Shown here: positions 2,457 to 51,632 of the stretch, one piece after another
Numbering within the stretch: the stretch's first letter is position 1
How the letters are laid out: each line of letters begins with the position of its first letter
NCBI GenBank assembly: GCA_963708025.1
Contig: CAVPSB010000015.1
Span: 288,001 to 352,000 of the forward strand
DNA from: an uncultured Candidatus Rokubacteria bacterium
GTDB taxonomy: Bacteria; Methylomirabilota; Methylomirabilia; Rokubacteriales; DASRDR01
Direction: 5' to 3'
Length of the DNA: 64,000 nt
Notes under the pieces: model-generated
Told to the model about the DNA's origin: nothing
Database searches by the model: none
What the model saw: the letters and a program-made list of their open reading frames with translations, nothing else
Translations under genes and position numbers: made by a program

Positions 2457-3209
2457 GCGGCCGACGCCTCTTGCCACGCCAGCACGCGCCGGCGCACGAG
2501 CCGCAGGAGCTGGTCGCTCGCGTAGCCCAGGATCGCGATCGCCAGGATGGCGACGTACATCAGGTCGAAGCGGAGGCTATTCTCCGACTGCCGGATCAGG
2601 AACCCGAGCCCCGAGCGCGCGTTGATCATCTCGGTGGAGAAGAGCAGGATGAACGACAGCGCCAGCGACACGCGGATACCGGCGAAGATCAGCGGCAGCG
2701 CGACGGGGACCACGATCTTCCGGAAGATCTGCGCCGCGGCCGGCCCCCATGTTGAGGGCGGACCAGACCAGGATGGTCGGCGTGGCGCGGGCGCCGTAGT
2801 AGGCGTTGATGAAGCTCGGGTAGAAGCAGGCGAGCGCGATGATCAGCACCTTCGAGAGGTCGCCGATCCCGAACCAGAGCATGAAGATCGGCAGGAAGAC
2901 GATCTTCGGGACCGGGTAGGTGAGGAAGACCACCGGGCTCAGGAGCTGGTCGAACCCCCGCGCCGCGCCGGCGCCGAGCCCCAGCGCGATGCCGGCGGCG
3001 GTCCCGAGGGCGAAGCCCGGGAGCGAGCGGACGAGGCTGGCGGCGACGTGAGGGAGAAGCTCCCCGGAGCGGAGCGCCTCGATGAAGTGGGTGGCGACCT
3101 CGGCCGGGCTCAGGACGAAGTCGGGCAGGCCGGTCAGCCACAGGAGCTGCCAGAGCGCCAGCGCGCCGAGCAGGGCGAGGGGGCCAACCAGCCGGCGGGC
3201 GGCGGGCAT
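2453..3209 (-). CDS. NitT/TauT-family ABC transporter permease (frameshift near 2735)
   Basis: ORFs 2577-3248 and 2453-2713 join as ...ALNMGAGRAQIFRKIVVP... if one base is removed; paralogous to the adjacent permease. Confidence 0.85.
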
Positions 3210-3216
3210 GATCAGC

Positions 3217-3326
3217 GGGCGGGGACCGATGAGCGTCGCAAGGTTCATCTCGGTCGGGACGCGCTCGGCCTACAACGTTCGGACGGCCTTCGGCCTGTGG
3301 GCGCTGCTCGCTCCTCGGCCCCGCCC
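3217..3326 (+). repeat. Structured dispersed repeat family 1, copy A (short)
   Basis: GGGCGGGGACCGA...TCGGCCCCGCCC terminal inverted repeat; internal blocks GTTCATCTCGGTCGGGACGCGCTCGGCCT and GCGCTGCTCGCTCC shared with other copies. Confidence 0.9.
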
Positions 3327-3370
3327 CCGGAACTTGACTCATCCGTCATGACTTTGGCGCCCCAAGGACT

Positions 3371-5068
3371 CTAGCGCGGGGTGGGTCGCAGGAAGTCGAA
3401 GTCGCACCCCTCGGAGGCCTGGAGCACCCGCTCGACGAAGAGCCGGCGGTAGCCGCGCTCGAAGCCCGGCGCCGGGGCCCGCCACTCGGCCCGCCGCCGG
3501 GCCAGCTCGTCGTCGGGCACCCGCAGGTCGAGCCGCCGCGCCTCCACGTCGAGCACGATCTCGTCGCCGTCCCGCACCAGCGCCAGCGGACCGCCCACGG
3601 CCGCCTCGGGCGCGACGTGGAGCACGACCGTGCCGCCGGCGGTGCCGCTCATCCGCGCGTCGGAGACGCGCACCATGTCGCGGACCCCGGCCGCCAGCAG
3701 CTTGGCCGGGATCGGCAGCGAGCCGGCCTCGGGCATCCCGGGGCCGCCGACGGGCCCGGCGTTCTGGAGCACGAGCACGCTGTCGGGGGTGACGGGCAGC
3801 GCCGGGTCGTCCACACGGGCGGTGAGGTCGTCGAGGTCGCGGAAGACGCACGCCGGGCCGCGGTGGCGCAGGAGCGCCGGTGAGGCCGCCGAGACCTTCA
3901 TCACCGCGCCGTCGGGGGCGAGGTTGCCCCGCAGGATCGCCAGGCCGCCCTCCGCCCGGAGCGGGCGCTCGAGTGGCGTGATCACGTCCTGCCACGCCCC
4001 CGGCACGGGCACGCCGTCGAGCACGTCGCCGAGCGTCTGCCCGGTCACCGTGAGCACCTCCCGCGCCAGGAGCGGCGCCAGCACCTTCATCACGCCCGGG
4101 ATGCCGCCGGCCTCGACGAGGTCCTCCATGAGGTGCTTCCCGGATGGCCGGACGTTGGCCACCACCGGCGTCGTCCGGCCGACGCGGTCGAAGTCGTCGA
4201 GGGTCAGCGGCACCCCGGCACGCCCGGCGATCGCCAGGAGGTGGACCACGGCGTTGGTGGAGCCGCCGAGGGCCATGACGACCCGGAGCGCGTTCTCGAA
4301 CGCCGGCCGGGTCAGGATCACCGACGGCCGGAGGTCCTCGCGCGCCATCTCGACGATCCGCCGGCCGGCGGCCTCGGCGAGACGGAGGCGGCGCGCCAGC
4401 GGCGCCGGGATCGCCGCCATCCCGGGGAGCGTGAGGCCGAGCGCCTCGGCGAGGGCCGCCATCGTGCTGGCCGTGCCCATGACCATGCAGGTGCCGGTGG
4501 ACGGGAAGAGCTCGCCCTGGATCGCCTCCAGGCGGACGGCGTCGAGGGTGCCCGCCCGGTACTCGCTCCAGAAGCGCCGGCAGTCGGTGCAGGCCCCGAG
4601 CCGCGCCCCCTCGTGGCGTCCGGCCAGCATCGGGCCCGCGGTGACCACGATGGCCGGACGATCGGCGCTGGCCGCGCCCATGATCTGGGCGGGCATGGTC
4701 TTGTCGCAGCCCCCGAGCAGGACGACGCCGTCCATCGGCTGGCCGAGGATCATCTCCTCGGTGTCCATCGCCATCAGGTTGCGGAAGAGCATGGTGGTCG
4801 GCGAGAGGTAGATCTCGCCGAGCGAGATGGTCGGGAACTCGAGCGGGAGACCGCCGGCCTGCCAGACGCCGCGCTTCACGGCCTCGGCGATCTCGCGGAG
4901 GTGCCGGTGGCAGTGGTTGAACTCGCTCCAGGTCTGGGCGATCCCGATGATGGGCCGGGCGAGGTCCTCGGCCGTCAGCCCCGAGCCCCGGGCGTAGGCG
5001 CCGCGGATGAAGAGGCTGAAGGCGGGGTCGCCGTAGTGGGTCAGGCCGCGTCGGATGCCGTGGATCAT
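3371..5068 (-). CDS. IlvD/Edd-family dehydratase (probable sugar-acid dehydratase)
   Basis: GGCDKT, GTCMVMGTASTM, GGSTNAV, LRGNLAPDGAVMK and SDARMSGT motifs. Confidence 0.92.
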   Translation of the reverse strand: MIHGIRRGLTHYGDPAFSLFIRGAYARGSGLTAEDLARPIIGIAQTWSEFNHCHRHLREIAEAVKRGVWQAGGLPLEFPTISLGEIYLSPTTMLFRNLMAMDTEEMILGQPMDGVVLLGGCDKTMPAQIMGAASADRPAIVVTAGPMLAGRHEGARLGACTDCRRFWSEYRAGTLDAVRLEAIQGELFPSTGTCMVMGTASTMAALAEALGLTLPGMAAIPAPLARRLRLAEAAGRRIVEMAREDLRPSVILTRPAFENALRVVMALGGSTNAVVHLLAIAGRAGVPLTLDDFDRVGRTTPVVANVRPSGKHLMEDLVEAGGIPGVMKVLAPLLAREVLTVTGQTLGDVLDGVPVPGAWQDVITPLERPLRAEGGLAILRGNLAPDGAVMKVSAASPALLRHRGPACVFRDLDDLTARVDDPALPVTPDSVLVLQNAGPVGGPGMPEAGSLPIPAKLLAAGVRDMVRVSDARMSGTAGGTVVLHVAPEAAVGGPLALVRDGDEIVLDVEARRLDLRVPDDELARRRAEWRAPAPGFERGYRRLFVERVLQASEGCDFDFLRPTPR

Positions 5069-23898: not shown

Positions 23899-25347
23899 AT
23901 GACCAGCTCGCGGTGGAAGCGGTACCAGCAGGTTCACTTCGTGGGGATCGGCGGCGCCGGCATGAGCGGCATCGCCGAGGTGCTGCTCACCCTCGGCTAC
24001 CAGGTGACCGGCTCCGACGCCCGGCGCAACGAGGCGGTCGAGCGGCTCGAGCGGCTCGGGGCCAAGCTCTTCACCGGCCACGCCGCCGGCCACGTCGAGG
24101 GCGCGCAGGTCGTCGTCTACTCCTCCGCCGTCGCCCGGGACAACCCGGAGCTACAGGCCGCCCGGCAGCGCGGGATCCCGGTGATCCCCCGCGCGGAGAT
24201 GCTGGCCGAGCTGATGCGGGTGAAGTCGGGCATCGCGATCGCCGGGACCCACGGGAAGACCACGACGACGTCGATGGTGGGCGCCGTGCTGGCCGAGGCC
24301 GGCTTCGATCCGACGATCGTCGTCGGGGGCCGGGTGACGGCCCTCGGGGCCAACGCCCGGCTCGGCCAGGGCGAGTTCCTGGTCGCCGAGGCCGACGAGT
24401 CGGACGGCTCGTTCCTCAAGCTCACGCCGACCATCGCGGTGGTGACGACGATCGACGCCGAGCACCTCGACTACTACCGCGACCTGGCGGCCATCCGGGA
24501 GACGTTCCTCCAGTTCATCAACAAGGTGCCGTTCTACGGGGTGGCCGTCCTCTGCGCCGACCAGCCCGAGATCCAGGCGCTCCTCCCGCGTGTCGAGAAG
24601 CGCGTCATCACCTACGGGCGGGAGAACGCCGCCGACCTGGTGGCGGCCGCGGTGCGCCTCCAGGGGCTCACCGCGCGCTTCGAAGTGCTCCAGCGCGGCG
24701 AGGCGCTGGGCGAGCTGACCCTCCAGGTGCCGGGGGTCCACAACGTCGCCAACGCGCTGGCGGCGACCGCCGTCGGGCTGGATCTCGAGGTGCCCTTCCC
24801 CGTGATCCAGCGGGCGCTCGGGGGCTTCACCGGCGTCCAGCGGCGCTTCCAGGTCAAGGGGGAGGCCGGCGGGATCCTCGTCGTGGACGACTACGGCCAC
24901 CACCCGGCCGAGATCCGGGCGACCCTGGCCGCGGCGCGCCGGGGGTTCGAGCGCCGTCTCGTCGTCGCCTTCCAGCCGCACCGCTTCACGCGGACACTCC
25001 ACCTGCACGCCGACTTCCTGACCGCTTTCGGTGATGCGGACGTGCTGGTGCTCACCGATATCTACCCCGCCGGCGAGGCGCCGATCCCCGGGGTCCACGC
25101 AGAGACCCTGGCCCAGGGCATCGCAGCGGGAACCACCCGAGAGGTCCGATACGTCAGCGACCGGGGGGAGCTCGTCGAGCTCCTCCTCCGCATCACGCGG
25201 CCCGGGGACCTGATCGTCACGCTGGGGGCCGGGGACATCGGGGGCGTCGCCGACCAGGTGCTCGCGCGCCTGGCCGCGGCCCCTTCGGCCGCCGCCCCCC
25301 AAGCCGAGGACGATCGGAGCGCAGGAGGAGGGCGCCATGCTCGGTGA
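23899..25347 (+). CDS. murC: UDP-MurNAc--L-Ala ligase
   Basis: [48 protein letters not shown]. Confidence 0.97.
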
Positions 25348-26215
25348 GATTCGCGGTGAGGTCCGGTTCAAGGAACCGCTGGCCTTCCACACGTCCCTTC
25401 GCTGTGGAGGGCCGGCCGACATCTTCGTCCTGCCCCAGGACGTGGACGACGTCCGCAAGGCGCTCATGTACGCCGACAAGGAGAAGCTGCCCGTCGTCGT
25501 CCTGGGCGGGGGGAACAATGTCCTCGTCAAGGACAAGGGCGTCCGCGGGATCGTCATCAAGCTCGAGGGGTGCCTCGGCCGCATGGAGTTCCACGGCGAC
25601 GAGGTGACGACCGGCTGCGGGGCCGGGCTCTCGACGATGATCCGGGAGGCGGCGGCCCTCGGATTGGGGGGCGTGGAATGCCTGGTGGGGATCCCGGCCA
25701 CCGTCGGGGGTGCCCTGGCCATGAACGCCGGGACGAACGACGGCTCGATCGGGGACTTCGTCTCCGCCGTGTACTTTCTCCACGCGGACGGGACGATCGG
25801 GGAGCTGAAGCCCGCCACGGGGACCTTCGCCTACCGCACGTTCAACTTCGCGCCCGGCTCGATCCTGCTCGGCGCCCGGCTGACCCTCCACCGGAAGCCG
25901 CAGAAGGAGATCTACGCCGAGATCAAGGCCCGGCTCAAGCAGAAGAAGGCCACGCAGCCCCTGGCCCTGGCGTCCGCCGGCTTCATCTGGAAGAATCCCC
26001 CCTTCGACCAGGCCGGCAAGCTCCTCGAGAAGGCGGGGTGCAAGGGCAAGCGCATCGGGAGCGCCGAGGTCTCGGCGAAGCACGCCAACTTCATCGTCAA
26101 TCGGGGGGGCGGCACCGCGGCTGACATCCTGGCCCTCATGGAGATGGCCTTCGAGCGCGTGTTCAAGCAGACGGGCACGAAGTTGCAGCCGGAAATCCGC
26201 ATCATCGGAGACTAG
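25337..26215 (+). CDS. murB: UDP-N-acetylenolpyruvoylglucosamine reductase (divergent active site)
   Basis: [52 protein letters not shown]. Confidence 0.9.
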
Positions 26216-26218
26216 CGG

Positions 26219-26815
26219 GTGCCGTGCCGATAACCTTCGCATCGTTCATCTCGGTCGTGACGCGCTCGGCCTGCGGCAATCGAACGGCCTTCGGCCTCTG
26301 GCGAACGGCCTTCGGCCTCTGGGCGTCCGTCCCGACCTATGGTCGTCCTTCATCCGGCCTTCGGCCTCTGGCATCCGGCCTTCGGCCTCTGGCATCCGGC
26401 CTTCGGCCTCTGGCATCCGGCCTTCGGCCTCTGGCATCCGGCCTTCGGCCTCTGGCATCCGGCCTTCGGCCTCTGGCATCCGGCCTTCGGCCTCTGGCAT
26501 CCGGCCTTCGGCCTCTGGCATCCGGCCTTCGGCCTCTGGCATCCGGCCTTCGGCCTCTGGCATCCGGCCTTCGGCCTCTGGCATCCGGCCTTCGGCCTCT
26601 GGCATCCGGCCTTCGGCCTGGCATCCGGCCTTCGGCCTCTGGCATCCGGCCTTCGGCCTCTGGCATCCGGCCTTCGGCCTCTCGGGTGGTCGGCCACCCT
26701 CAACGTACCAGGGCGTACGTCTCGGGTGGCCTCCTCCCTGCGTCCTTCGGACGGCCTCCGGCCTTTGGCAGACGGCCTCCGGCCTGGGGGGGCTGCTCGG
26801 TTCTCGGCCCGGCAC
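26219..26815 (+). repeat. Structured dispersed repeat family 1, copy B (expanded)
   Basis: Terminal stem GTGCCGTGCCGA / TCGGCCCGGCAC; shared internal blocks; contains the 21-bp array. Confidence 0.85.
26351..26682 (+). repeat. Tandem array of about 16 x 21 bp (CATCCGGCCTTCGGCCTCTGG)
   Basis: 12 perfect units 26351-26602, one 19-bp unit, two perfect units, one truncated unit. Confidence 0.97.
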
Positions 26816-26816
26816 A

Positions 26817-27729
26817 ATGCCTGTGGTTAGGACTGCCCGGCCGACCATCCTCGTCCCGCGCGAGCGCCGGGGGACTTCGGTCGAACGCGGCGACGCGTGA
26901 GCCCTTCATTGCCCGCCAGCAACACCGAAACCGGCGTCTCCGGCGGGTCCGCCGGTCGGTCCGGTGGCTCGGCACGGTGGTGGCAACCGGTCTCATCTCG
27001 ACGGCGATCGCCGTCGCCGGCGTCGCCGTCGTCCACGCCGTTCGCCAGAGCCGGCTGATGGCCGTTTCCGATGTGGCCGTGGTTGGGGCCCGGCGCCTGT
27101 CGGAGACCGCGATCCGCACTGCCGCGGCGATCGAGCCGGAAGCGTCGCTGCTCGACCTCGACGTCGCCGCGGTCCGGGGCCGCCTGGAAGCCTTGCCGGG
27201 CGTCCGCCGGGCCCGGGTCGTTCGCCATCTCCCCAACCGGGTGGCGCTGTGGATCGAGGAGCGGGAGCCCTACACGCTCGTCAATCTCGACCGGGCGGCC
27301 CGGTCCGGGCTGGTCTGGATCGACGCCGACGGTTACCTCGTCGGTCCGGAGCGGCGGGGCACCACGCCGTCCCTGCCCATCTTGAGCGGGGTCGAAGCTC
27401 CGGCGACGCCCGGCGAGCCCCTGGGGGACCGGCTCCAGGCCGGCTTGACGCTGCTCCGCGCCATCCAGCGGTCGGGCACTCGCGTCGTCGCCCGGATCTC
27501 CGAGATCGACCTCGAACCCGCTGGCGGACCGGTCCTCTACACCGTGGACGGCGCCGCCGTGTGGCTCGGCGCCGAGGGCTGGGACGAGCGGCTGGCCCGG
27601 CTCGACGGGGTGCTGGGTGAGCTGGACGACCACCGCGAGCGCGTGGACTCGCTTGATCTCCGCTTCCGGGATCTGGTGGTGCTGAAGCCCCGGCCCTCCC
27701 CGACAACCACCATGCCAAAGGAACGGTGA
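26817..27729 (+). CDS. ftsQ: Cell division protein FtsQ/DivIB (start uncertain)
   Basis: Basic stretch, TM helix, POTRA-like region, C-terminal DLRFRDLVVLKP, directly before ftsA. ATG 26817 needs one base removed (G run 26869-26873); otherwise the frame is open from GTG 26224 through the repeat. Confidence 0.85.
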
Positions 27730-27731
27730 GG

Positions 27732-28979
27732 ATGCGCAAGACGCAGGTGCTCGCGGGCCTCGACGTCGGAACCACGAAGGTGTGCGCGCTCATCGGTGAG
27801 CTGACACCGAACGGCGTGGACATCGTCGGGATCGGCCAGCAGTCGTCCCGCGGGCTGCGGAAGGGCATGGTCGTGAACATCGACTCGACGGTCGAGGCCA
27901 TCAAGGGCGCGATCGCCGACGCCGAGCAGATGGCCGGGGTGGAGGTGGAGGCGGTCTACACCTCGATCGGCGGCGGGCACATCAGCGGGATCAACAGCCA
28001 GGGCGTGGTGGCCATCCAGGGCAGGACCCGGGAGGTCGCGCCGCCGGACGTCGAGCGCGCCATCGAGGTGGCGCGCGACATCCACCTGGCGCCTGGTCGC
28101 GAGATCTTGCACGTCCTCACGCAGGCCTTCTCGGTGGACGAGCAGGACGGCATCCGGGAGCCGATCGGCATGCTGGGGAGCCGGCTCGGTGTCGAGGTCC
28201 ACCTGATCACCGGCGCGGTGACGGCCGTGCAGAACGTCGTCCGCAGCGTGAACCGCGCCGGTTTGACCGTGAGGGACCTGGTGCTCCAGCCGCTGGCCTC
28301 GGCCGAGTCGGTGCTGACCCCGGACGAGCGGGACCTCGGCGTGGTCGTCATCGACGTGGGCGGCGGCACCACCGACGTGGCGCTCTTCCGCGAGAACGCG
28401 GTCTGGCACACCGCGGTCGTTCCGCTGGGCGGGGACCACATCACCAACGACATCGCCGTCGGACTCCGGACGCCGCCGGCCGACGCGGAGGAGCTCAAGA
28501 AACACTTCGGGTGCGCGCAGGCGGCGCTCGTGCTGGAGGACGAGACGGTCGAGGTCCCGTCCATCGGCGGGCGGAAGCCGCGCGTTCTTTCCGGGCAGAC
28601 GCTGGCGCGCATCGTCCAGGCCCGGGTGAAGGAGATCTTCACCCTGGTCGCCCGCGGTATCCGGCAGGCCGGGCTGGAGGACGCCGCCACCTCCGGCATC
28701 GTGGTGACCGGCGGCGCCGCGCTGATGGAAGGCCTGCCGGAGCTGGCCGAGTCCATCTTCGACTCGCCCGTGCGGCGCGGGACCCCGAAGTGGGTGGGCG
28801 GCTTCTACGACCAGGTCGAGAGCCCGACGTTCGCCACCGCGGTGGGGCTCGTGCTCGCCGGCGCTCGCCGTGAGCGCCGGCCGCCGGCGAGCGCCGGCTT
28901 GCCCGGGCTCGGCGAGGGGCTGCCGGGCGTCGGGCGGGCGGTGCGTCGAGTGCGCGAATGGGTGGGTCAGCTCTTTTAG
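27732..28979 (+). CDS. ftsA: Cell division protein FtsA
   Basis: GLDVGTTKV, DVGGGTTD, GGDHITNDIA, VVTGGAA, amphipathic C-terminal helix. Confidence 0.98.
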   Translation: MRKTQVLAGLDVGTTKVCALIGELTPNGVDIVGIGQQSSRGLRKGMVVNIDSTVEAIKGAIADAEQMAGVEVEAVYTSIGGGHISGINSQGVVAIQGRTREVAPPDVERAIEVARDIHLAPGREILHVLTQAFSVDEQDGIREPIGMLGSRLGVEVHLITGAVTAVQNVVRSVNRAGLTVRDLVLQPLASAESVLTPDERDLGVVVIDVGGGTTDVALFRENAVWHTAVVPLGGDHITNDIAVGLRTPPADAEELKKHFGCAQAALVLEDETVEVPSIGGRKPRVLSGQTLARIVQARVKEIFTLVARGIRQAGLEDAATSGIVVTGGAALMEGLPELAESIFDSPVRRGTPKWVGGFYDQVESPTFATAVGLVLAGARRERRPPASAGLPGLGEGLPGVGRAVRRVREWVGQLF

Positions 28980-28982
28980 CTT

Positions 28983-29148
28983 GGGCGGGGCCGATGAGCG
29001 TCGCATCGCGTCGTCGTTCGGACGGCCTTCGGCCTTTGGGGTCGTCGCCGATCCTCGGCGTACTCGGAGTACGCCTGCGGTCGGCGACGCCCTGCGTCTG
29101 TCGGACGGCCTTCGGCCTGTGGGCGCTGCTCGCTCCTCGGCCCCGCCC
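28983..29148 (+). repeat. Structured dispersed repeat family 1, copy C
   Basis: GGGCGGGGCCGA...TCGGCCCCGCCC; two GGCCTTCGGCC modules; GGCGTACTC-G-GAGTACGCC hairpin. Confidence 0.92.
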
Positions 29149-29283
29149 CTGCGAGGTTGACTCATCGACGATGGCTGCGGGGCTTCGAGGACAGTAGGGG
29201 GATCGGTGGAACGACGTGGTGGTCGAGGGAGCAGGGCGGAGCTGAAACCCGGTGGTGACACCGGGGCAGGAGAAGGAGGCGGG

Positions 29284-30496: not shown

Positions 30497-30623
30497 CCTC
30501 CGGCCCCCCCCTCCCCCCGGTGGCCGCCGGAAGGACGGGACGTCGTGAGGGCCGCAGGCCCGAGCCGTCCCGGCGATCCGGTTAAGTGGGAGGGGGGCTG
30601 GGGGGTGGGCGGGAGGTCCCGAA
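30497..30623. repeat. G/C-rich palindromic repeat (family 2, copy 2, with internal insertion)
   Basis: CCCCCCCTCCCCCC...GTGGGAGGGGGGCTGGGGG...GGGAGGTCCCGAA; ends at the pgeF ATG. Confidence 0.75.
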
Positions 30624-33295: not shown

Positions 33296-33751
33296 ATGCG
33301 ACTGTCGGCCATGGACATCCGGCAGCAGCAGTTCGCGGTCAAGCTGATCCGGGGGTTCGATCCCCAGGAGGTCGACGCGTTCCTCGAAGAGGTCGCCGAC
33401 GATTGGGAGGAGCTCCACAAGGAGAACAATCTCCTCAAGGAGCAGCTCACCACCCTCGAAGATCAGAAGAAAATCAGCGACGAGCACGCCACCAGCCTCC
33501 AGCAGACGCTCGTCGTCGCGCAGAAGATGGCCGAGGAGTTCCGCGAGAGCTCCAAGCGGGCGGCCGAGATCGTCCTCCGGGAGGCGCAGCTCCAGGCCGA
33601 GAAGCTCCTCGAGGAGAAGCGCCAGGAGCTGAACAAGCTGACCCTGGACATCGACGGGCTCAAGCAGGCGAAGCGCCAGCTGGCGGAGGAGCTGCTGTCG
33701 ACCCTCCGGATGCACCAGCGCCTAGTCGAGCAGAAGCTCGCGGATGCATAG
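33296..33751 (+). CDS. divIVA: DivIVA domain protein
   Basis: LSAMDIRQQQF...RGFDPQEVDAFL followed by coiled coil. Confidence 0.93.
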   Translation: MRLSAMDIRQQQFAVKLIRGFDPQEVDAFLEEVADDWEELHKENNLLKEQLTTLEDQKKISDEHATSLQQTLVVAQKMAEEFRESSKRAAEIVLREAQLQAEKLLEEKRQELNKLTLDIDGLKQAKRQLAEELLSTLRMHQRLVEQKLADA

Positions 33752-33954
33752 GGGGGCGGGGCCGATGAGCGTCGCAACGTTCATCTCGGTCGGGACGCGC
33801 TCGGCCTGCGTCGATCGGACGGCCTTCGGCCTGGGGGCGTCCGTCCCGACCTATGGTCGTCCTCGGTCGTCGCCGATCCTCGGCGTACTCGGAGTACGCC
33901 TGCGGTCGGCGACTCCCTGCGTCCTAGCGCTGCTCGCTCCTCGGCCCCGCCCCC
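33752..33954 (+). repeat. Structured dispersed repeat family 1, copy D (partial further copy at 33981-34022)
   Basis: 14-bp terminal inverted repeat GGGGGCGGGGCCGA / TCGGCCCCGCCCCC; all internal blocks present. Confidence 0.93.
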
Positions 33955-34053
33955 GCGCGCTTGTCGCATCAGCCATGGCCGGGCGGGGCCGTTGAGCGTC
34001 GCATCGCGTCGTCGTTCGGACGACCTCCCGGTAGCGCCTCGGAGGGGGCCCCA

Positions 34054-34434
34054 TTGATCGGAAGGGGGGCACCCTCCGAAGCTCCTCGGAGGGCGGCGAC
34101 GGCGAAGCCGCCGCGCGGCGCGGCCTCAGGCGCCCGCTCAGCCCGACAGGCTCCCGGCGAGAAGGAGACGCGGCTGACCGTGCAGGTTCAGCCCCGCGCC
34201 TCCCGCAACGGGATCGTCGCCGTGGACGGAACCGTGCTGCGGGTCCGCGTGACGGCCCCGCCGGCGGACGGCGCCGCGAACCAGGCAGTGCGCGATCTCC
34301 TGGCCGATGCCCTCGGGTGCCCGCGCTCCGCCGTGACGATCCTGCGCGGCCACGGCGCCCGCACGAAGCTGGTGGGGGTCACCGGGCTCGCGCCCGGCGA
34401 GCTCCTGTCCCGGCTCATGGCGGTCGCGCCCTGA
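34054..34434 (+). CDS. yggU: DUF167 (YggU) family protein, start uncertain
   Basis: LTVQVQPRASR...LRVRVTAPPADGAAN...GHGARTK; TTG 34054 preceded by GGAGG. Confidence 0.85.
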   Translation: MIGRGAPSEAPRRAATAKPPRGAASGARSARQAPGEKETRLTVQVQPRASRNGIVAVDGTVLRVRVTAPPADGAANQAVRDLLADALGCPRSAVTILRGHGARTKLVGVTGLAPGELLSRLMAVAP

Positions 34435-35553: not shown

Positions 35554-36231
35554 ATGACTTTGCCGTTCAAGATTGCTCAGGGTGACTTGGCGTTCCAGGC
35601 GGAATTCTCTGAGCCAGCCTTTGATCTTCTAAGAGATCCGACAGCGCTTCATCAGCGTGTCTTTTCGCAGTTGGCTCGTCACGGATTGACACTCGCCGAT
35701 ATGAAGATCGAGACAGGTAGCGGCGCTTTTGGCGATTTCCAGCTTAGCTGCTCCTTGCTCCATCTCACAACGTCTGTTCGCATTCGTCTCGACAAAGTAG
35801 AGATCCATTGTCTCGACCTCAAGCGGGTTTCAGCGAAGCAGATCGAGGAGATTGGATTGGCATCAATCGAGGCACCGACAGTTCAGGAGAGACAGCTTTC
35901 ATACAAGACATATTCAATGGCTGTGGCTGTTCACGGGTCTCTGGTTGGTTCCACGCCCAAAGATTTCTTAGCCAGATTTGCCACAGGAGCTCCCGGGCAA
36001 GTTGGGCCGCTGGTTGGATCCGGAAGTGTATTCTACTATGGTCCTGCAGGCGAACAGGTCGCTGCGTCAGTTACTGTGGATCTGTCGGCGATACTGCAGC
36101 CTGGTCTATTTGTCAGAACGCACGTAGTCTGGGATGCTGGTAAGATAGCTGTTGCTGCACTCTCTGAGTTCGCGGCCAAGCATGTACAGAACGTCTTTTC
36201 GCAACTCGGAATAGCCGTAGAAAAAGGCTAG
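35554..36231 (+). CDS. Hypothetical protein (low-GC cassette gene 1)
   Basis: 225-aa ORF, SD GAGG, AT-richer codon usage than the flanks. Confidence 0.7.
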   Translation: MTLPFKIAQGDLAFQAEFSEPAFDLLRDPTALHQRVFSQLARHGLTLADMKIETGSGAFGDFQLSCSLLHLTTSVRIRLDKVEIHCLDLKRVSAKQIEEIGLASIEAPTVQERQLSYKTYSMAVAVHGSLVGSTPKDFLARFATGAPGQVGPLVGSGSVFYYGPAGEQVAASVTVDLSAILQPGLFVRTHVVWDAGKIAVAALSEFAAKHVQNVFSQLGIAVEKG

Positions 36232-36232
36232 C

Positions 36233-36940
36233 GTGGCATCCGTGGCCATCCTTCCAGTCGTGGGCGCGCTGAATACCTCGGCAGTGCCCGATCGTGCCAC
36301 AAGCATGTCGCAGTCGTTCCTTCGCCGGAGACATCTAAGTGAACTAGGCGAGGGGGGAGCCGGCAGACGTGAGCTGAACCTTCGCCACGTGGGCCTTCAG
36401 AGACACTCCGTCCTTCTCGGTGAGCATTCAAACTTCGGCTTCGGCCAAGATGTGCGGACTGACCAATCGTTTCTGGATCTCCGTATCGATCCAGAACTCT
36501 TGAAGCTCGGCTTGCGCGCTAGATCACGGGCCAGAATCCTTCGTGCCCGGCGCGCTCCTCTAGCTGACGTGGTGAGCGAGAAACCAATTGGAACTACGCT
36601 CCCATACTCCTCACTGCTCAAGACCTTGATCGATGAGGAGCACATTGATGCTGCGCGCCGCTTACTCTCTGTAGCCCTCAGCGAGATCCCACATGATGTG
36701 CATCTCTTGGCTCTTGCCAGCCTTCTCGGAAGGCCGGCCATCACAAAGACCCAGGCCTCGGATGTCAACCGAAGCCGCGAGTTCCGATGGCTTCGTACGC
36801 AGGCGTCGGCCTATCGCGGCAAGTGGGTAGCCGTGGACGGGGACACGTTAGTCGCCGAAGCAGACTCGTTGCGCGAGTTGCTCGAGACGTTAAGGACGTC
36901 AAAGAGGTCGAGACCACCGCTCGTGCATCGAGTCCAATAG
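36233..36940 (+). CDS. Protein with C-terminal DUF5678-like domain (cassette gene 2)
   Basis: REFRWLRTQASAYRGKWVAVDGDTLVAEADSLRELL, preceded by a helical hairpin. Confidence 0.75.
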   Translation: MASVAILPVVGALNTSAVPDRATSMSQSFLRRRHLSELGEGGAGRRELNLRHVGLQRHSVLLGEHSNFGFGQDVRTDQSFLDLRIDPELLKLGLRARSRARILRARRAPLADVVSEKPIGTTLPYSSLLKTLIDEEHIDAARRLLSVALSEIPHDVHLLALASLLGRPAITKTQASDVNRSREFRWLRTQASAYRGKWVAVDGDTLVAEADSLRELLETLRTSKRSRPPLVHRVQ

Positions 36941-36944
36941 CGCA

Positions 36945-37400
36945 ATGCTGATGCTTGATGATCAGGTCTTTACCGTTGGTCGTTCGAAGTTTGCCGATCA
37001 AGCAACCGAAGGCGGTGAGCCGACCGCCAAGATCTATGTGAAGATCGCCCCAGGAGACCTCGGTGTACCGGTGTTGGCTCAGTTGGACACAGGCTCGCCG
37101 TGGAGCGTACTAGAGCCGGAAATCGCCGAAGCTCTCGGTGTTCTGGGAGGGCCCGGGGAACCCAAGACGCTTCTCACGAAGGATGGACTCCAGGCTGGTC
37201 GGCTTGTACAGGTACCGATGACTTTGCTCGCCGACGAGGGCCAAGGACAGTCATTGCAAATGGAAGCCACTGTATTCGTGTCTCCTGCTTGGCCACAGGG
37301 AAGAAGCTTTCTGGGGTATTCGGGACTGCTCGAGTTCATACGTTTCGCAGTCGATGCACAGGCTAACTACTTCTACTTCGGACCTTCGCAGTCATCGTAG
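36945..37400 (+). CDS. Retropepsin-like aspartyl protease (cassette gene 3)
   Basis: Single LDTGS catalytic motif; C-terminal FLGYSGLL resembling the retropepsin hydrophobic-hydrophobic-Gly strand. Confidence 0.8.
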   Translation: MLMLDDQVFTVGRSKFADQATEGGEPTAKIYVKIAPGDLGVPVLAQLDTGSPWSVLEPEIAEALGVLGGPGEPKTLLTKDGLQAGRLVQVPMTLLADEGQGQSLQMEATVFVSPAWPQGRSFLGYSGLLEFIRFAVDAQANYFYFGPSQSS

Positions 37401-37430
37401 TCGCTGCCCGATAGCCTGACAGGAGCTCTC

Positions 37431-37459
37431 TTGACGGGGTCCAGGGCCCCGTCTACAGT
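37431..37459 (+). promoter_or_regulatory. Putative sigma70 promoter of the aminotransferase-serA operon, with an internal inverted repeat
   Basis: TTGACG, 17 bp spacer, TACAGT; GACGGGG-N7-CCCCGTC covers the spacer. Confidence 0.65.
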
Positions 37460-37529
37460 AGTGCTACCGTGAAAGTCCCCCCACATCTAGCGGTGCTCAT
37501 GGTTGATTGGTCGTGAAAGGAGCGGCCGG

Positions 37530-38672
37530 ATGAAGAAGTACTACCTCCTCGCCCCCGGACCGACGCCCATCCCGCCGGAGGTGCTCCAGGCCCTGTCCCG
37601 CCCGATCCTCCATCACCGCACCCCGGAGTTCGAGGCGCTCTTCGCCCGGGTCCGGAGCGGGCTGGCCGAGCTCTGCGAGACGCGGAGCGAGGTGCTGGTC
37701 CTGGCCGCGTCGGGGACGGGGGCGATGGAGGCGGCGGTGGTGAACCTGCTGTCGCCGGGCGACGAGGCCATCGTGGTCCGCTGCGGCAAGTTCGGCGAGC
37801 GGTGGACCGACATCGGGACGGCCTTCGGGGTCACCGTTCACGCCCTCGACGCCCCCTACGGCGACACGGTGCCGCCCGAGCGGGTGGCGGCCGCCCTCCA
37901 GGCCCACCCGCGGGCCCGGGCCGTCTTCGCCACCCAGAGCGAGACCTCCACCGGCGTGCTCGAGGACATCGAGGCCTACGCCGCCCTGACCCGGAAGACC
38001 GACACGCTCCTGGTCGTGGACACGGTCTCCTCCCTCGGCGTCGTGCCGTGCCCGATGGACGCCTGGGGCGTGGACGTCGTCGTCGCTGGCTCCCAGAAGG
38101 GGCTCATGTGCCCGCCCGGCCTGGCCTTCATCGCGCTCGGCGACCGCGCCTGGCGGGCGGTCGAGACCGCGCGGTGCCCGAAGTTCTACTGGGACCTGGC
38201 CGCCGAGCGGAAGTGGCAGGCCAAGCGGCAGGCGCAGTACACCCCGGCGGTCTCGCTCCTGATGGGCCTCGACGTGGCGCTCGGGCTGATGAAGGCGGAG
38301 GGACTGCCGCAGGTCTACGGCCGCCACGACCGCCTGGCCCGGGCGATGCGGGCCGGCGCCGAGGCCCTCGGCCTCACGCTCTTCCCGCGCGCCACGCCGA
38401 GTCCGGCGGTGACGGCGGTCGTGGCCCCGCCCGGGGTGGACGGGGAGGCGGTGGTCCGCGCCTACGGGGAGGAGCACAACATCACGATCGCGGGCGGCCA
38501 GGGCGAGATGAAGGGGAAGATCTTCCGCCTCGCCCACCTGGGCTACGTCGCCGACTACGACGTGATCGTGGGGCTGGCCGCCCTCGAGCGCGTGCTCGCC
38601 CGCCTCGGTGTCCCGGTGGACTTCGGCGCCGGCGTGGCCGCGGCCCAGAAGCTCCTCGCCAAGGAAAACTGA
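37530..38672 (+). CDS. Class V aminotransferase (alanine-glyoxylate/serine-pyruvate family; likely phosphoserine aminotransferase role)
   Basis: LLAPGPT, SGTGAMEA, ETSTG, GSQKGLMCPPG, GGQG..KGKIFRLAHLG; adjacent to serA. Confidence 0.9.
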   Translation: MKKYYLLAPGPTPIPPEVLQALSRPILHHRTPEFEALFARVRSGLAELCETRSEVLVLAASGTGAMEAAVVNLLSPGDEAIVVRCGKFGERWTDIGTAFGVTVHALDAPYGDTVPPERVAAALQAHPRARAVFATQSETSTGVLEDIEAYAALTRKTDTLLVVDTVSSLGVVPCPMDAWGVDVVVAGSQKGLMCPPGLAFIALGDRAWRAVETARCPKFYWDLAAERKWQAKRQAQYTPAVSLLMGLDVALGLMKAEGLPQVYGRHDRLARAMRAGAEALGLTLFPRATPSPAVTAVVAPPGVDGEAVVRAYGEEHNITIAGGQGEMKGKIFRLAHLGYVADYDVIVGLAALERVLARLGVPVDFGAGVAAAQKLLAKEN

Positions 38673-38691
38673 GAGCGTGTCGAGGAAGCGG

Positions 38692-38758
38692 CTCCGGCTC
38701 CCCCCTCCCCCCAGTGGGTGGGGGAGGGGGGCTGGGGGGGTAGGCGGGAGGTGCTGAA
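38692..38758. repeat. G/C-rich palindromic repeat (family 2, copy 3)
   Basis: Near-identical to 1612-1680. Confidence 0.85.
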
Positions 38759-43817: not shown

Positions 43818-43846
43818 TGCCGGCCGGCTCGCGGCTGTTCTAGCCT

Positions 43847-44024
43847 CGGCGGGGCCGAGGAGCGAGCAGCGCTAGGACGCAGGGAGTCGCCCACCGCAGG
43901 CGTATGCAGCATACGCCGAGGATGGGCGACGACCGAGGACGACCAGAGGTCGGGACGGACGCGAGGCCGCAGGCCGAGCGCGTCACGACCGAGATGAACG
44001 TTGCGAAGCTCATCGGCCCCGCCG
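43847..44024 (-). repeat. Structured dispersed repeat family 1, copy E
   Basis: Perfect 12-bp terminal inverted repeat CGGCGGGGCCGA; reverse complement of the copy D blocks. Confidence 0.92.
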
Positions 44025-44025
44025 G

Positions 44026-44982
44026 CTACGTGTAGCTGAAGCCCATCGTCCGGCAGTGATAGTACAGCCCGCCGTCCTGGACGATGAGGAAGAGGGCCAG
44101 CCCGTCACCCTCGTTGTGGTGCGAGTGCATCCGGGTGGGCGGGGTGATCATGACCGCGTTCGGCTCCCAGTCCACCCGCTCCCCGTCGATCAGCGAGTAG
44201 CAGCGCTCACCGGCCACGACCAGCGTGACGGCCACCGCGTTGTGCCGGTGGGCGCGCTGGGTCTCGCCGGGCAGGAGCGAGTTCATGGCCAGCGTGTACG
44301 TGGGGGTCGTGGTGCGCGCCTGCTCGAGGGCGGCGTTCCCCAGGTTGACCGACTTCCCCGGCATGCTGGCCCCGCGCGGGTCGAGGTAGACGGCCCGGAG
44401 CTGCCGCCGGATCTCGGCCGCCGGGTAGTGCGCCGCCCGGATCGGCGGGTCGCCGGGCGCCGGCGACTGGCAGCGCTCGAAGGCCAGCGCCGGCTCGTTG
44501 GTGGCGATCCACAGTACCGTGTCCGTCGTGGCGTGGTGCCGGACCGTGCCGCCGCCGGGCAGGGCGAAGACGTCCCCGGCCTCCCAGGCGATCGACTCGC
44601 GGCCGTCGACCCCGAAGCTGGTCGTGCCGGCGCCGCGGATCGCGTAGTGGAGCTCGGTGCTGGCGACGAAGCGCGTCTCCAGGCGCTCGCCCCCCCGGAT
44701 GCGGGCGTAGCGCGCGAGGATCAGCGGCGTGGTGGCCGGCGACTCGAGCTGGAGGAGGCCGCTCAGGTCGAGGGGAACGAGGCCGGTCGGCGCCGCGGGG
44801 TCGAGGGCCCGGTCGTGCTCCGTCCGGAAGACGTGGGCCGGGATCGCCGGGCGCTTGATGTCGAAGCCGTCCAGGGAGGAGAGATAGCGCGCGTTGGCGG
44901 CGTAGGGGCTCGGCGTGCGGTCCGGCCCGGTCTCCACGCCGAGCAGCTCCCGGAGCCCGAGCTCGTCGATGGTCCTCGCCAT
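44026..44982 (-). CDS. Bicupin, gentisate 1,2-dioxygenase-like
   Basis: RAHRHNAVAV and HSHHN metal motifs in the C-terminal cupin; QDGGLYYH. Confidence 0.8.
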   Translation of the reverse strand: MARTIDELGLRELLGVETGPDRTPSPYAANARYLSSLDGFDIKRPAIPAHVFRTEHDRALDPAAPTGLVPLDLSGLLQLESPATTPLILARYARIRGGERLETRFVASTELHYAIRGAGTTSFGVDGRESIAWEAGDVFALPGGGTVRHHATTDTVLWIATNEPALAFERCQSPAPGDPPIRAAHYPAAEIRRQLRAVYLDPRGASMPGKSVNLGNAALEQARTTTPTYTLAMNSLLPGETQRAHRHNAVAVTLVVAGERCYSLIDGERVDWEPNAVMITPPTRMHSHHNEGDGLALFLIVQDGGLYYHCRTMGFSYT

Positions 44983-51526: not shown

Positions 51527-51632
51527 TCGGGGGGGTCTCGGAAGACCCCCCCGATGCCCCCCTCGGTTGCGGCGCCTAGTGGACGGCCTTCGGCCTTTGG
51601 GCTGCCGCTCGGACGCTGCACGCTGCCGAGCG
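51527..51632. repeat. Palindromic intergenic element (family 3), possible bidirectional terminator
   Basis: Perfect 12-bp stem TCGGGGGGGTCT-CGGA-AGACCCCCCCGA between convergent genes; related to 34040-34118; contains a GGCCTTCGGCC module. Confidence 0.7.

Follow-up and report, generated by a model that had tools for sequence, protein, structure and literature searches.

The BIMEs of enterobacteria are mosaics of a few hairpin and linker modules that fall into discrete length classes, with REPs alternating in strings, and MITEs of IS630/Tc1 or IS5 origin show a target preference for CTAG or TA, CTAG also being the preference of IS630-family elements. PATEs, which derive from IS200/IS605, have asymmetric ends with a sub-terminal hairpin a few nucleotides before the 3′ end, and carry the same tetranucleotide at the left flank and at the right end, with no duplication needed. 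The MIRUs of mycobacteria are intercistronic and oriented with the operon, abut stop and start codons, vary in their number of tandem units, and are read as small ORFs; they are not long palindromes. The described class closest to the repeats reported here is that of the GTAG-tagged REPs, which PMC3733652 (Di Nocera et al. 2013) places chiefly behind genes, in the gaps between ORFs that are co-directional or convergent, with the TAG often serving as the stop codon of the flanking ORF, and whose transposases may be absent from a genome. On that account GTAG REPs are already known to donate TAG stops, so the stop-codon habit described below is not new in itself.

The repeat family considered here was encountered in a 64,000-nt stretch (hereafter the window) of the draft genome of an uncultured Candidatus Rokubacteria bacterium, an assembly of 8.17 Mb in 49 contigs with 71% G+C, estimated at 99.67% completeness and 8% contamination. 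The Rokubacteria and Methylomirabilota are abundant soil bacteria without cultured representatives, and we found no literature on their repeats. A sequence-only reading of the window had listed five copies of a structured repeat and a fragment, all of which were found at the positions given. The stems quoted in it also read as written, with the inner hairpin GGCGTACTC-G-GAGTACGCC in copies C and D, GGCGTATGC-T-GCATACGCC in copy E and ACGTAC-N6-GTACGT in copy B, the enclosing stems GTCGCCGA/TCGGCGAC versus GTCGCCCA/TGGGCGAC versus GGCCACCC/GGGTGGCC, and the terminal stems likewise present. Its limits put the copies in the right places but drew them too narrowly: the start of each copy is a stop codon that lies 1-6 nt before the limit given, and on the 3′ side most continue into a tail. 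Three features had gone unremarked, namely the start on a gene's TAG stop, the 3′ tail with (C)TAG, and the orientation that follows the genes. The units and their parts are as follows:

33749..33980, plus strand: copy D, the feature under study, a whole unit
33749-33751, plus strand: TAG of copy D, which is the stop codon of ORF 33296..33751
33752-33954, plus strand: hairpin body of copy D, with the outer stem, the long hairpin M1, one 21-nt GGCC-TTC-GGCC module and the 54-nt hairpin M3
33955-33980, plus strand: truncated tail of copy D
33981..34030, plus strand: fragment of a further copy, comprising the head alone (GGGCGGGGCCGTTGAGCGTCGCATCGCG...) and fused with the tail of copy D
28977..29197, plus strand: copy C, with its body at 28983-29148
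28977-28979, plus strand: TAG of copy C, which is the stop codon of ftsA (ORF 27726..28979)
29194-29197, plus strand: GTAG end of the 47-nt tail of copy C, upstream of ftsZ
26213..26830, plus strand: copy B, with the variant outer stem GTGCCGTGCCGA / TCGGCCCGGCAC
26213-26215, plus strand: TAG of copy B, which is the stop codon of ORF 25337..26215
26285-26682, plus strand: array of the 21-nt module in copy B, 18.7 tandem copies
26828-26830, plus strand: TAG end of the short tail of copy B
43840..44028, minus strand: copy E, of the body subfamily with GTCGCCCA/TGGGCGAC and GGCGTATGC/GCATACGCC
44028-44026, minus strand: TAG of copy E, which is the stop codon of the minus-strand ORF 44026..44982
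43843-43840, minus strand: short tail of copy E, GAGG + CTAG
3213..3374, plus strand: copy A, among the few reversed copies; at its head CAG replaces TAG, and the next minus-strand gene has its start codon (CAT 3208-3210) 2 nt away
3371-3374: tail-terminal CTAG of copy A, which gives a TAG stop to the minus-strand ORF 3371..5068

With so short a tail, the inverted repeats of copy E extend almost to the CTAG on both sides. The tandem form seen at copy D, with a fragment fused into the tail, occurs at two other loci of the genome. A lone match at 51570-51614 of the window to the 21-nt GGACGGCCTTCGGCC module region, 76% identical to the reference copy, may be a further partial copy of the family. 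The window also holds a second repeat family, of C-run/G-run hairpins (CCTCCGGCTCCCCCCTCCCCCC ... GGGGGAGGGGGGCTGGGGGG), at 1611-1680, 30497-30623 and 38691-38758; two of these three copies (at 30497 and 38691) lie ~15-20 nt after a TGA stop, one of which is the ftsZ stop, and elsewhere (G000:C13:384226-385513) an IS110-family element sits inside a copy of this second hairpin. Finally, G+C drops to 61% at 36001-38000 of the window versus 69-76% elsewhere, and 35915-37116 is nearly uncovered by contigs from four soil runs that span the rest of the window; the low-G+C stretch may be a strain-specific island.

At the scale of the genome, a BLAST search with the window's five copies gave 1,860 matches that merged into 302 loci on 33 of the 49 contigs, totalling 42,093 nt or 0.52% of the genome, a repetition far beyond chance. 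The earlier description of a dispersed, structured and probably mobile repeat family is supported. Searching with both ends of copy D returned 187 5′-end and 211 3′-end matches, from which 158 end pairs were formed; 154 pairs of 80-410 nt were kept, and one of 6 nt and three of 2.9-6 kb were dropped. Left unpaired were 29 heads and 54 3′ arms, and the orphan heads, considered as a separate class, proved to be truncated or variant copies. Four contig pairs of the bin (C33/C4, C40/C13, C12/C30 and C32/C5) are 85-99% identical over kilobases, which fits the contamination estimate and probably reflects a mixture of two related strains or species.

A complete unit consists of a (C)TAG, a hairpin body and a tail with a terminal (C)TAG, and each copy forms an imperfect long hairpin, 90-250 nt in length. 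A 17-bp outer stem (GGGCGGGGCCGA-GAGCG / CGCTC-TCGGCCCCGCCC) closes the mosaic body, inside which the modules are optional: the long hairpin M1, 0 to 18 copies of the 21-nt GGCC-TTC-GGCC mini-hairpin, and the 54-nt hairpin M3. Length classes of 91, 117, 132, 153, 174, 186, 207, 228 and 249 nt result, differing by the 21- and 54-nt modules. M3 is present at ~174 genome loci and varies within the genome as a few linked ‘alleles’, so that its sequences count subfamilies and not independent events. Across 151 copies, 2,401 of 2,567 cells of the outer stem (12 + 5 bp) are Watson-Crick, and this stem supplies terminal inverted repeats of the kind that characterize MITEs. Bodies of the same length class have a median identity of 91% (up to 98.5%), and tails one of 70%. 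Either the bodies are constrained or homogenized after insertion, or the tails differ among sources; simple recent copying does not explain tails less alike than bodies. A coding reading was also considered, as module lengths are multiples of three and the TAG-to-TAG frame can be open, and was ruled out on the grounds that the spacing varies and the changes compensate stems rather than being synonymous. An 8-codon ATG...TAG frame in the tail was set aside as well, being not conserved in other genera.

The link to stop codons extends far beyond the window. TAG stands immediately before the outer stem in 82 of the 154 paired copies and at the 5′ edge of 107 of 151 anchored copies; in frame with this TAG, the sequence upstream has a periodicity of the third codon position. 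Gene ends were taken from a crude caller, not a gene finder (open frames of >= 100 codons with GC3 >= 0.8 and well above GC2), which gave 8,316 ends over the whole genome: 4,508 TGA (54%), 3,439 TAG (41%) and 369 TAA (4%). By this caller, 145 of 197 heads found with nhmmer lie <=12 nt from a same-strand gene end, and those ends are TAG in 115 cases, TGA in 21 and TAA in 9. Immediately before the element's TAG stands C in 54 of 82 copies and G in 23, versus C in 643 of 3,439 (19%) and G in 72% of all TAG stops so called. CTAG itself is scarce in this genome (2,458 sites versus ~21,000 expected from composition, a ratio of ~0.11 or ~nine-fold depletion), and 81 of the 624 CTAG stop codons called in the same way bear an element. 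Copies in 12 other genomes lie behind different genes, yet a stop triplet, read by eye, again stands directly before them (TAG in 14 and TGA in 3 of 19 readable cases). The palindrome therefore bears an unpaired 5′ (G)TAG tag such as defines REPs and REPINs.

At the other end, ~40% of copies have a 3′ tail that again ends in (C)TAG. The 47-nt tails, of which there are 78, are nearly all joined to a body and have the consensus ...TTCAAGGAACCTAG (in full, GAGAACTTGACTCATCTGCCATGACTTTGGCGCTTCAAGGAACCTAG). Past the 3′ arm of the 151 anchored copies, the first TAG comes at 35-55 nt in 51 (at exactly 46 nt in 25), at <=14 nt in 12 and elsewhere in 22, and 66 copies have none within 62 nt; in a control stretch placed 300 nt beyond, a TAG stands at 35-55 nt in 9 copies and at <=14 nt in 1. 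TAG at either fixed 3′ distance is thus found in 63 of 151 copies versus 10 of 151 in the control stretch, and 48 of 151 combine the 5′ TAG with one at a canonical 3′ distance, a pattern in which the TAG, CTAG or TA may be duplicated or may simply abut the element. The sequence-only reading had seen no clear target-site duplication, but a (C)TAG repeat resembling one does exist. Such ends bring to mind a classical MITE of a CTAG-targeting DDE transposon, either IS630/Tc1-like with TA duplication or IS5-like with CTAG duplication, in which the outer stem would be the terminal inverted repeats and the tail a remnant of the parent's interior. The 17-19-nt inverted repeats, which in copies with a short tail, E among them, reach nearly to the CTAG at either end, and the excess of (C)TAG at both ends over the control agree with such an origin, but long-tailed copies have no inverted repeat at their extreme 3′ end.

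Copies point in the same direction as the upstream gene: among 75 tailed copies, the head lies at a same-strand gene end in 57, and in 6 it is the tail that lies at the end of a gene on the opposite strand. Agreement with local GC skew is similar for elements (66 of 110, 60%) and for genes (2,370 of 4,301, 55%); orientation follows genes, not replication. Coding downstream of the 78 tails is co-directional in 52 cases, convergent in 14 and unclear in 12, and in 32 of the 52 co-directional cases an in-frame start codon is first met -1 to 16 nt past the tail, an upper bound on closeness, as the first start codon can precede the true start; that of ftsZ is probably ~70 nt beyond the first start codon after the tail of copy C. 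In 13 of the 52 the start codon lies 7-9 nt past the tail, and it is ATG in 9 of these 13, ATG being rare in such composition. An AAGGA or GAGGA motif, which other genera also keep, stands 6 nt ahead of the tail's end, and this candidate ribosome-binding site could serve genes whose own site was displaced; at 13-15 nt from those ATGs, AAGGA has a long spacing for a Shine-Dalgarno site. The tail's TTGACT was considered as a promoter and rejected, as no sigma-70-like pair was found around copy A (scan of window 2900-3700). The same scan of copy A and its flanks gave no U-tract terminator, and the 3′ arm is followed by CCCCGAGAAC, not by the U-tract that together with a GC-rich hairpin makes an intrinsic terminator.

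The structure of the unit is maintained to a degree that its sequence is not. As single-stranded DNA, copy D folds at -72.9 kcal/mol (z = -6.7 versus 200 shuffles), and the whole body folds to a single closed structure. RNAalifold applied to 20 of the 28 distinct 132-nt copies of the own genome gave a 45-pair rod with compensatory changes in 6 of its 45 pairs, and a covariance model built from those copies had full-length matches at loci of other genomes, with the sense strand scoring far above the antisense (123 vs 39 bits at locus L011). A cross-genome alignment joined three own copies with 14 copies of 12 other genomes from at least five families (17 copies, 13 genomes), and contained double changes in 19 of 35 consensus pairs (11.0 +/- 1.5 in shuffles), 96.1% paired cells (80.5 +/- 0.9) and 80 compensatory cells (21.6 +/- 3.7). 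None of 500 shuffles reached any of these three measures, and slid controls gave at most 8 pairs and 16 cells. In helices 2-4, which are internal and far from the ends, 10 of 21 pairs have double changes. The earlier proposal that stems change while pairing is kept, so that structure rather than sequence is maintained, is borne out within the genome as well as across the 13 genomes, where covariation in the larger alignment exceeded that of every shuffle.

Covariation of this kind might be taken to indicate a host-useful RNA element (a terminator, an mRNA stabilizer or a ‘ribosome termination structure’) whose mobility is secondary. The fixed sense orientation directly behind stop codons would suit such a role, as would bodies far better conserved than tails and the covariance model's preference for the sense strand, and stable structures just past stop codons are put forward in bioRxiv 10.1101/2020.02.10.941153 as insulators of translation in operons. 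Two invariant sense-strand U-G pairs, present in 20 copies, are the only hint toward RNA in the pairing itself. The substitutions argue otherwise: compensatory changes are nearly all double (80 cells changed on both sides versus 6 on one) and mostly GC<->CG, and the outer stems of 151 copies hold 19 G-U versus 33 A-C, with no sense-strand G-U excess. Swaps between GC and CG that take no path through G-U, with almost no G-U present, suggest upkeep of a palindrome at the DNA level rather than RNA, and the pattern points to what is expected for a DNA palindrome kept symmetric, not for selection on RNA. The mRNA-level function suggested earlier thus finds no support in the substitution pattern, and with no U-tract at copy A and its flanks, the one copy scanned, and orthologous genes of the nearest species doing without the element (see below), we think it quite improbable that an RNA role is primary. 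The symmetry of the palindrome could instead be kept through recognition of the fold, or of both ends, by an enzyme, or through hairpin-templated repair.

No Rfam family matched the window at gathering score, and no published description was found for the element or for repeats of this phylum, in keeping with the earlier view of the family as undescribed. A sub-threshold SAH riboswitch match on the minus strand at 34039-34093, just downstream of the fragment (19.4 bits versus a gathering score of 37, E = 0.3), is probably due to chance.

Several comparisons bear on mobility. In the own genome copies follow ddl and ftsA. The six nearest species, whose FtsA is 63-84% identical, have none in their dcw loci, and none is present at 26 metagenome ftsA loci (61-88% identity); the element occurs at these orthologous sites only in this lineage. 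Contigs 95-99% alike from four soil runs break at the element borders, the breaks being piece ends at 28978 and 33755 and piece starts at 44032; in three of the runs 28978 is joined to 33754. The ftsA stop is thus joined to an element start in three runs, which indicates that very close relatives share copy C; no bridging empty allele was seen among the contigs of the four runs. Within the assembly, C33/C4, C12/C30 and C32/C5 differ by an element, in intergenic DNA too diverged for a duplication to be read from an empty site, and the interval that an element occupies in one contig of C40/C13 is taken up in its partner by another repeat with an IS110 inside it. Matches are present in 27 of 31 genomes (30 relatives and the own genome) and, at E <= 1e-5, in 52 of 151 genomes of a phylum sample that include other orders of the class. 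By family these comprise 11/11 of its own, 31/93 of f2, 1/1 of f4, 4/12 of f8, 3/3 of f10 (among them G067, an unpublished genome) and 1/18 of f7, with none in five further families. What is conserved across orders is M3 with the 3′ arm, at 73-85% identity.

An enzyme that might move these elements was sought in the same genomes. The 99.7%-complete own genome has no hit to Y1/RAYT (PF01797) or to TnpB (PF07282), and its transposase loci (7 IS110, 5 IS4/IS5, 3 weak Y2 and 1 sub-threshold IS630, a decayed piece) have no head, tail or M3. Y1 genes are present in 11 of 30 relatives, with none in the five richest in element hits (G001, G002, G003, G005 and G006), and the six Y1 loci of relatives that were fetched are without head, tail or head motif. 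At Y1 loci of relatives (L100, L103 and L104, from G010, G009 and G028) there are 28-42-nt TIRs with GGGGTCAG, clear in three of four examined, which match the ‘TIRYT’ type with its GGGGWSAS motif as given in PMC3733652. The arrangement also agrees with the ‘TIRtron’ described for Acidobacteria and others.

These results bear most directly on the idea of a true REP/REPIN system, in which a RAYT or TIRYT (Y1 HUH) would cut the folded strand at its foot, where the (C/G)TAG tag lies, the enzyme's gene having been lost here. The unpaired (C/G)TAG foot, high copy number, place behind genes and donation of TAG match the GTAG REPs as PMC3733652 presents them, and that source also states that REPtrons can be absent and that transposase and repeat presence correlate poorly; in addition, GGGGTCAG in the TIRs of the relatives' Y1 loci is loosely like the element's GGGG(C/G)(G/A)GGGCC. 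The absence of Y1 from the own genome and from the relatives richest in the element nevertheless tells against it, as do compound hairpins of 90-250 nt where units of 20-40 nt would be expected, and an orientation that tracks genes, not replication. The REP/HUH-type character proposed in the sequence-only reading is accordingly weakened, Y1 or RAYT genes flanked by copies having been found neither in the own genome nor at the relatives' six loci, where the TIRs are unrelated to the element; we consider a lost REP/REPIN system improbable. The same reading had set the family apart from classical MITEs, a separation that loses force given the terminal inverted repeats and the (C)TAG repeated at either end. 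IS630-type DDE_3 genes, found in 18 of 30 relatives and as the decayed piece in the own genome, add to the case for a MITE, but the head motif is absent from 12 IS630 loci of relatives and from the own DDE loci, the covariation of helices 2-4 is not something that a transposase reading only the ends needs, and the identity of M3 and the 3′ arm across orders is unusual for a decaying MITE. A classical MITE origin thus seems unlikely, if less so than a lost REP/REPIN system.

Candidates for an autonomous copy were rejected. Head-to-3′-arm pairs of 2.9-6 kb turned out to be adjacent elements that enclose housekeeping genes only, with holA, murJ, xerC/D-like, moeA and cytochrome genes between them, and convergent or divergent copies enclose genes for citrate synthase, enoyl-CoA hydratase, FTHFS, histidine kinases, rbfA and ribF. 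Also set aside was a 1.55-kb repeat, which encodes a DUF222-HNH protein and has nothing in common with the hairpin element. This unit, found at G000:C15:235156-236717 and in about a dozen other places, comprises a 469-aa DUF222 + HNH endonuclease gene and a ~210-nt conserved leader, and resembles the REP13E12-type repeats of mycobacteria.

We therefore favour the reading, to which we assign a probability of roughly 0.55, that the family belongs to the REP/BIME/MITE kind and consists of small mobile elements that are neither coding nor autonomous. New copies would be placed at a (C)TAG, and with such placement the gene would retain its stop codon and the element would be tolerated even within operons. 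The mobilizing enzyme would act in trans, being either not encoded in the own genome or not recognizable there. That it reads the folded palindrome by REP- or IS200-like single-strand chemistry, a lost RAYT or TIRYT included, is a tentative suggestion with appreciably less than even odds, and a DDE transposase of IS630 or IS5 type, duplicating TA or CTAG, is nearly as likely. Selection would then filter which copies are retained. The very stable hairpin directly past the stop codon may insulate translation or transcription, and the orientation bias would reflect selection on retained copies through this post-stop hairpin and through the tail's Shine-Dalgarno-like AAGGA upstream of the next start. 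Translation insulation by a post-stop structure is a plausible reason for sense-oriented copies to be kept, and a host-level role of the hairpin is possible. A bolder proposal, for which we would give long odds, is that of a class-wide, RAYT-independent repeat system built for operon junctions, which would land on the rare stop-codon CTAG, restore the stop, offer a ribosome-binding motif on the other side, and be copied by an enzyme family not yet recognized as a transposase. On this proposal, activity of the element could also be among the reasons for the scarcity of CTAG in the genome.

The family is of wider interest in that it adjoins core genes such as ftsA and represents a natural case for REP-like elements that persist without a RAYT. 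If it is true that hairpin and tail insulate the upstream gene and re-prime the downstream one, the unit would be a compact natural part for operon building, and the number of 21-nt modules, which varies from 0 to 18, makes it a useful strain-typing marker even without an insulating role.

Set beside the systems introduced at the outset, the family is real, abundant, undescribed and of the REP/BIME/MITE kind. It shares with the GTAG REPs, as described in PMC3733652, the form of high-copy extragenic palindromes with an unpaired xTAG foot, units that combine into larger hairpins and a conserved structure. It differs from them in a tag that is mostly CTAG, in multi-module, nested units far larger than the 20-40 bp of REPs, which occur singly or in inverted doublets, in an asymmetric 47-nt tail with a second CTAG, and in having no RAYT in its own genome and none flanked by the element in relatives. 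Its combinatorial mosaic build and discrete length classes recall the BIMEs, but its modules are nested within one closing stem and show no sequence relation to them. Terminal inverted repeats, small size, the lack of coding capacity and CTAG or TA at both ends are as in MITEs of IS630/Tc1 or IS5 origin, from which it departs in that no parent IS with its ends was found, its internal hairpins covary, and a long tail breaks the symmetry of the ends. The asymmetric ends, the sub-terminal hairpin and the tetranucleotide on left flank and right end are PATE-like; unlike PATEs, the element has no TnpA or TnpB in its own genome and an orientation that is not tied to replication. Like the MIRUs, it is intercistronic, oriented with the operon, abuts neighbouring stop and start codons and varies in its number of tandem units, but it has no conserved frame, and other genera lack the ATG of the tail. 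New here are the preference for CTAG, the large nested mosaic hairpin and the asymmetric tail with a second CTAG beside the following start codon, together with persistence across a class and the lack of a RAYT link.
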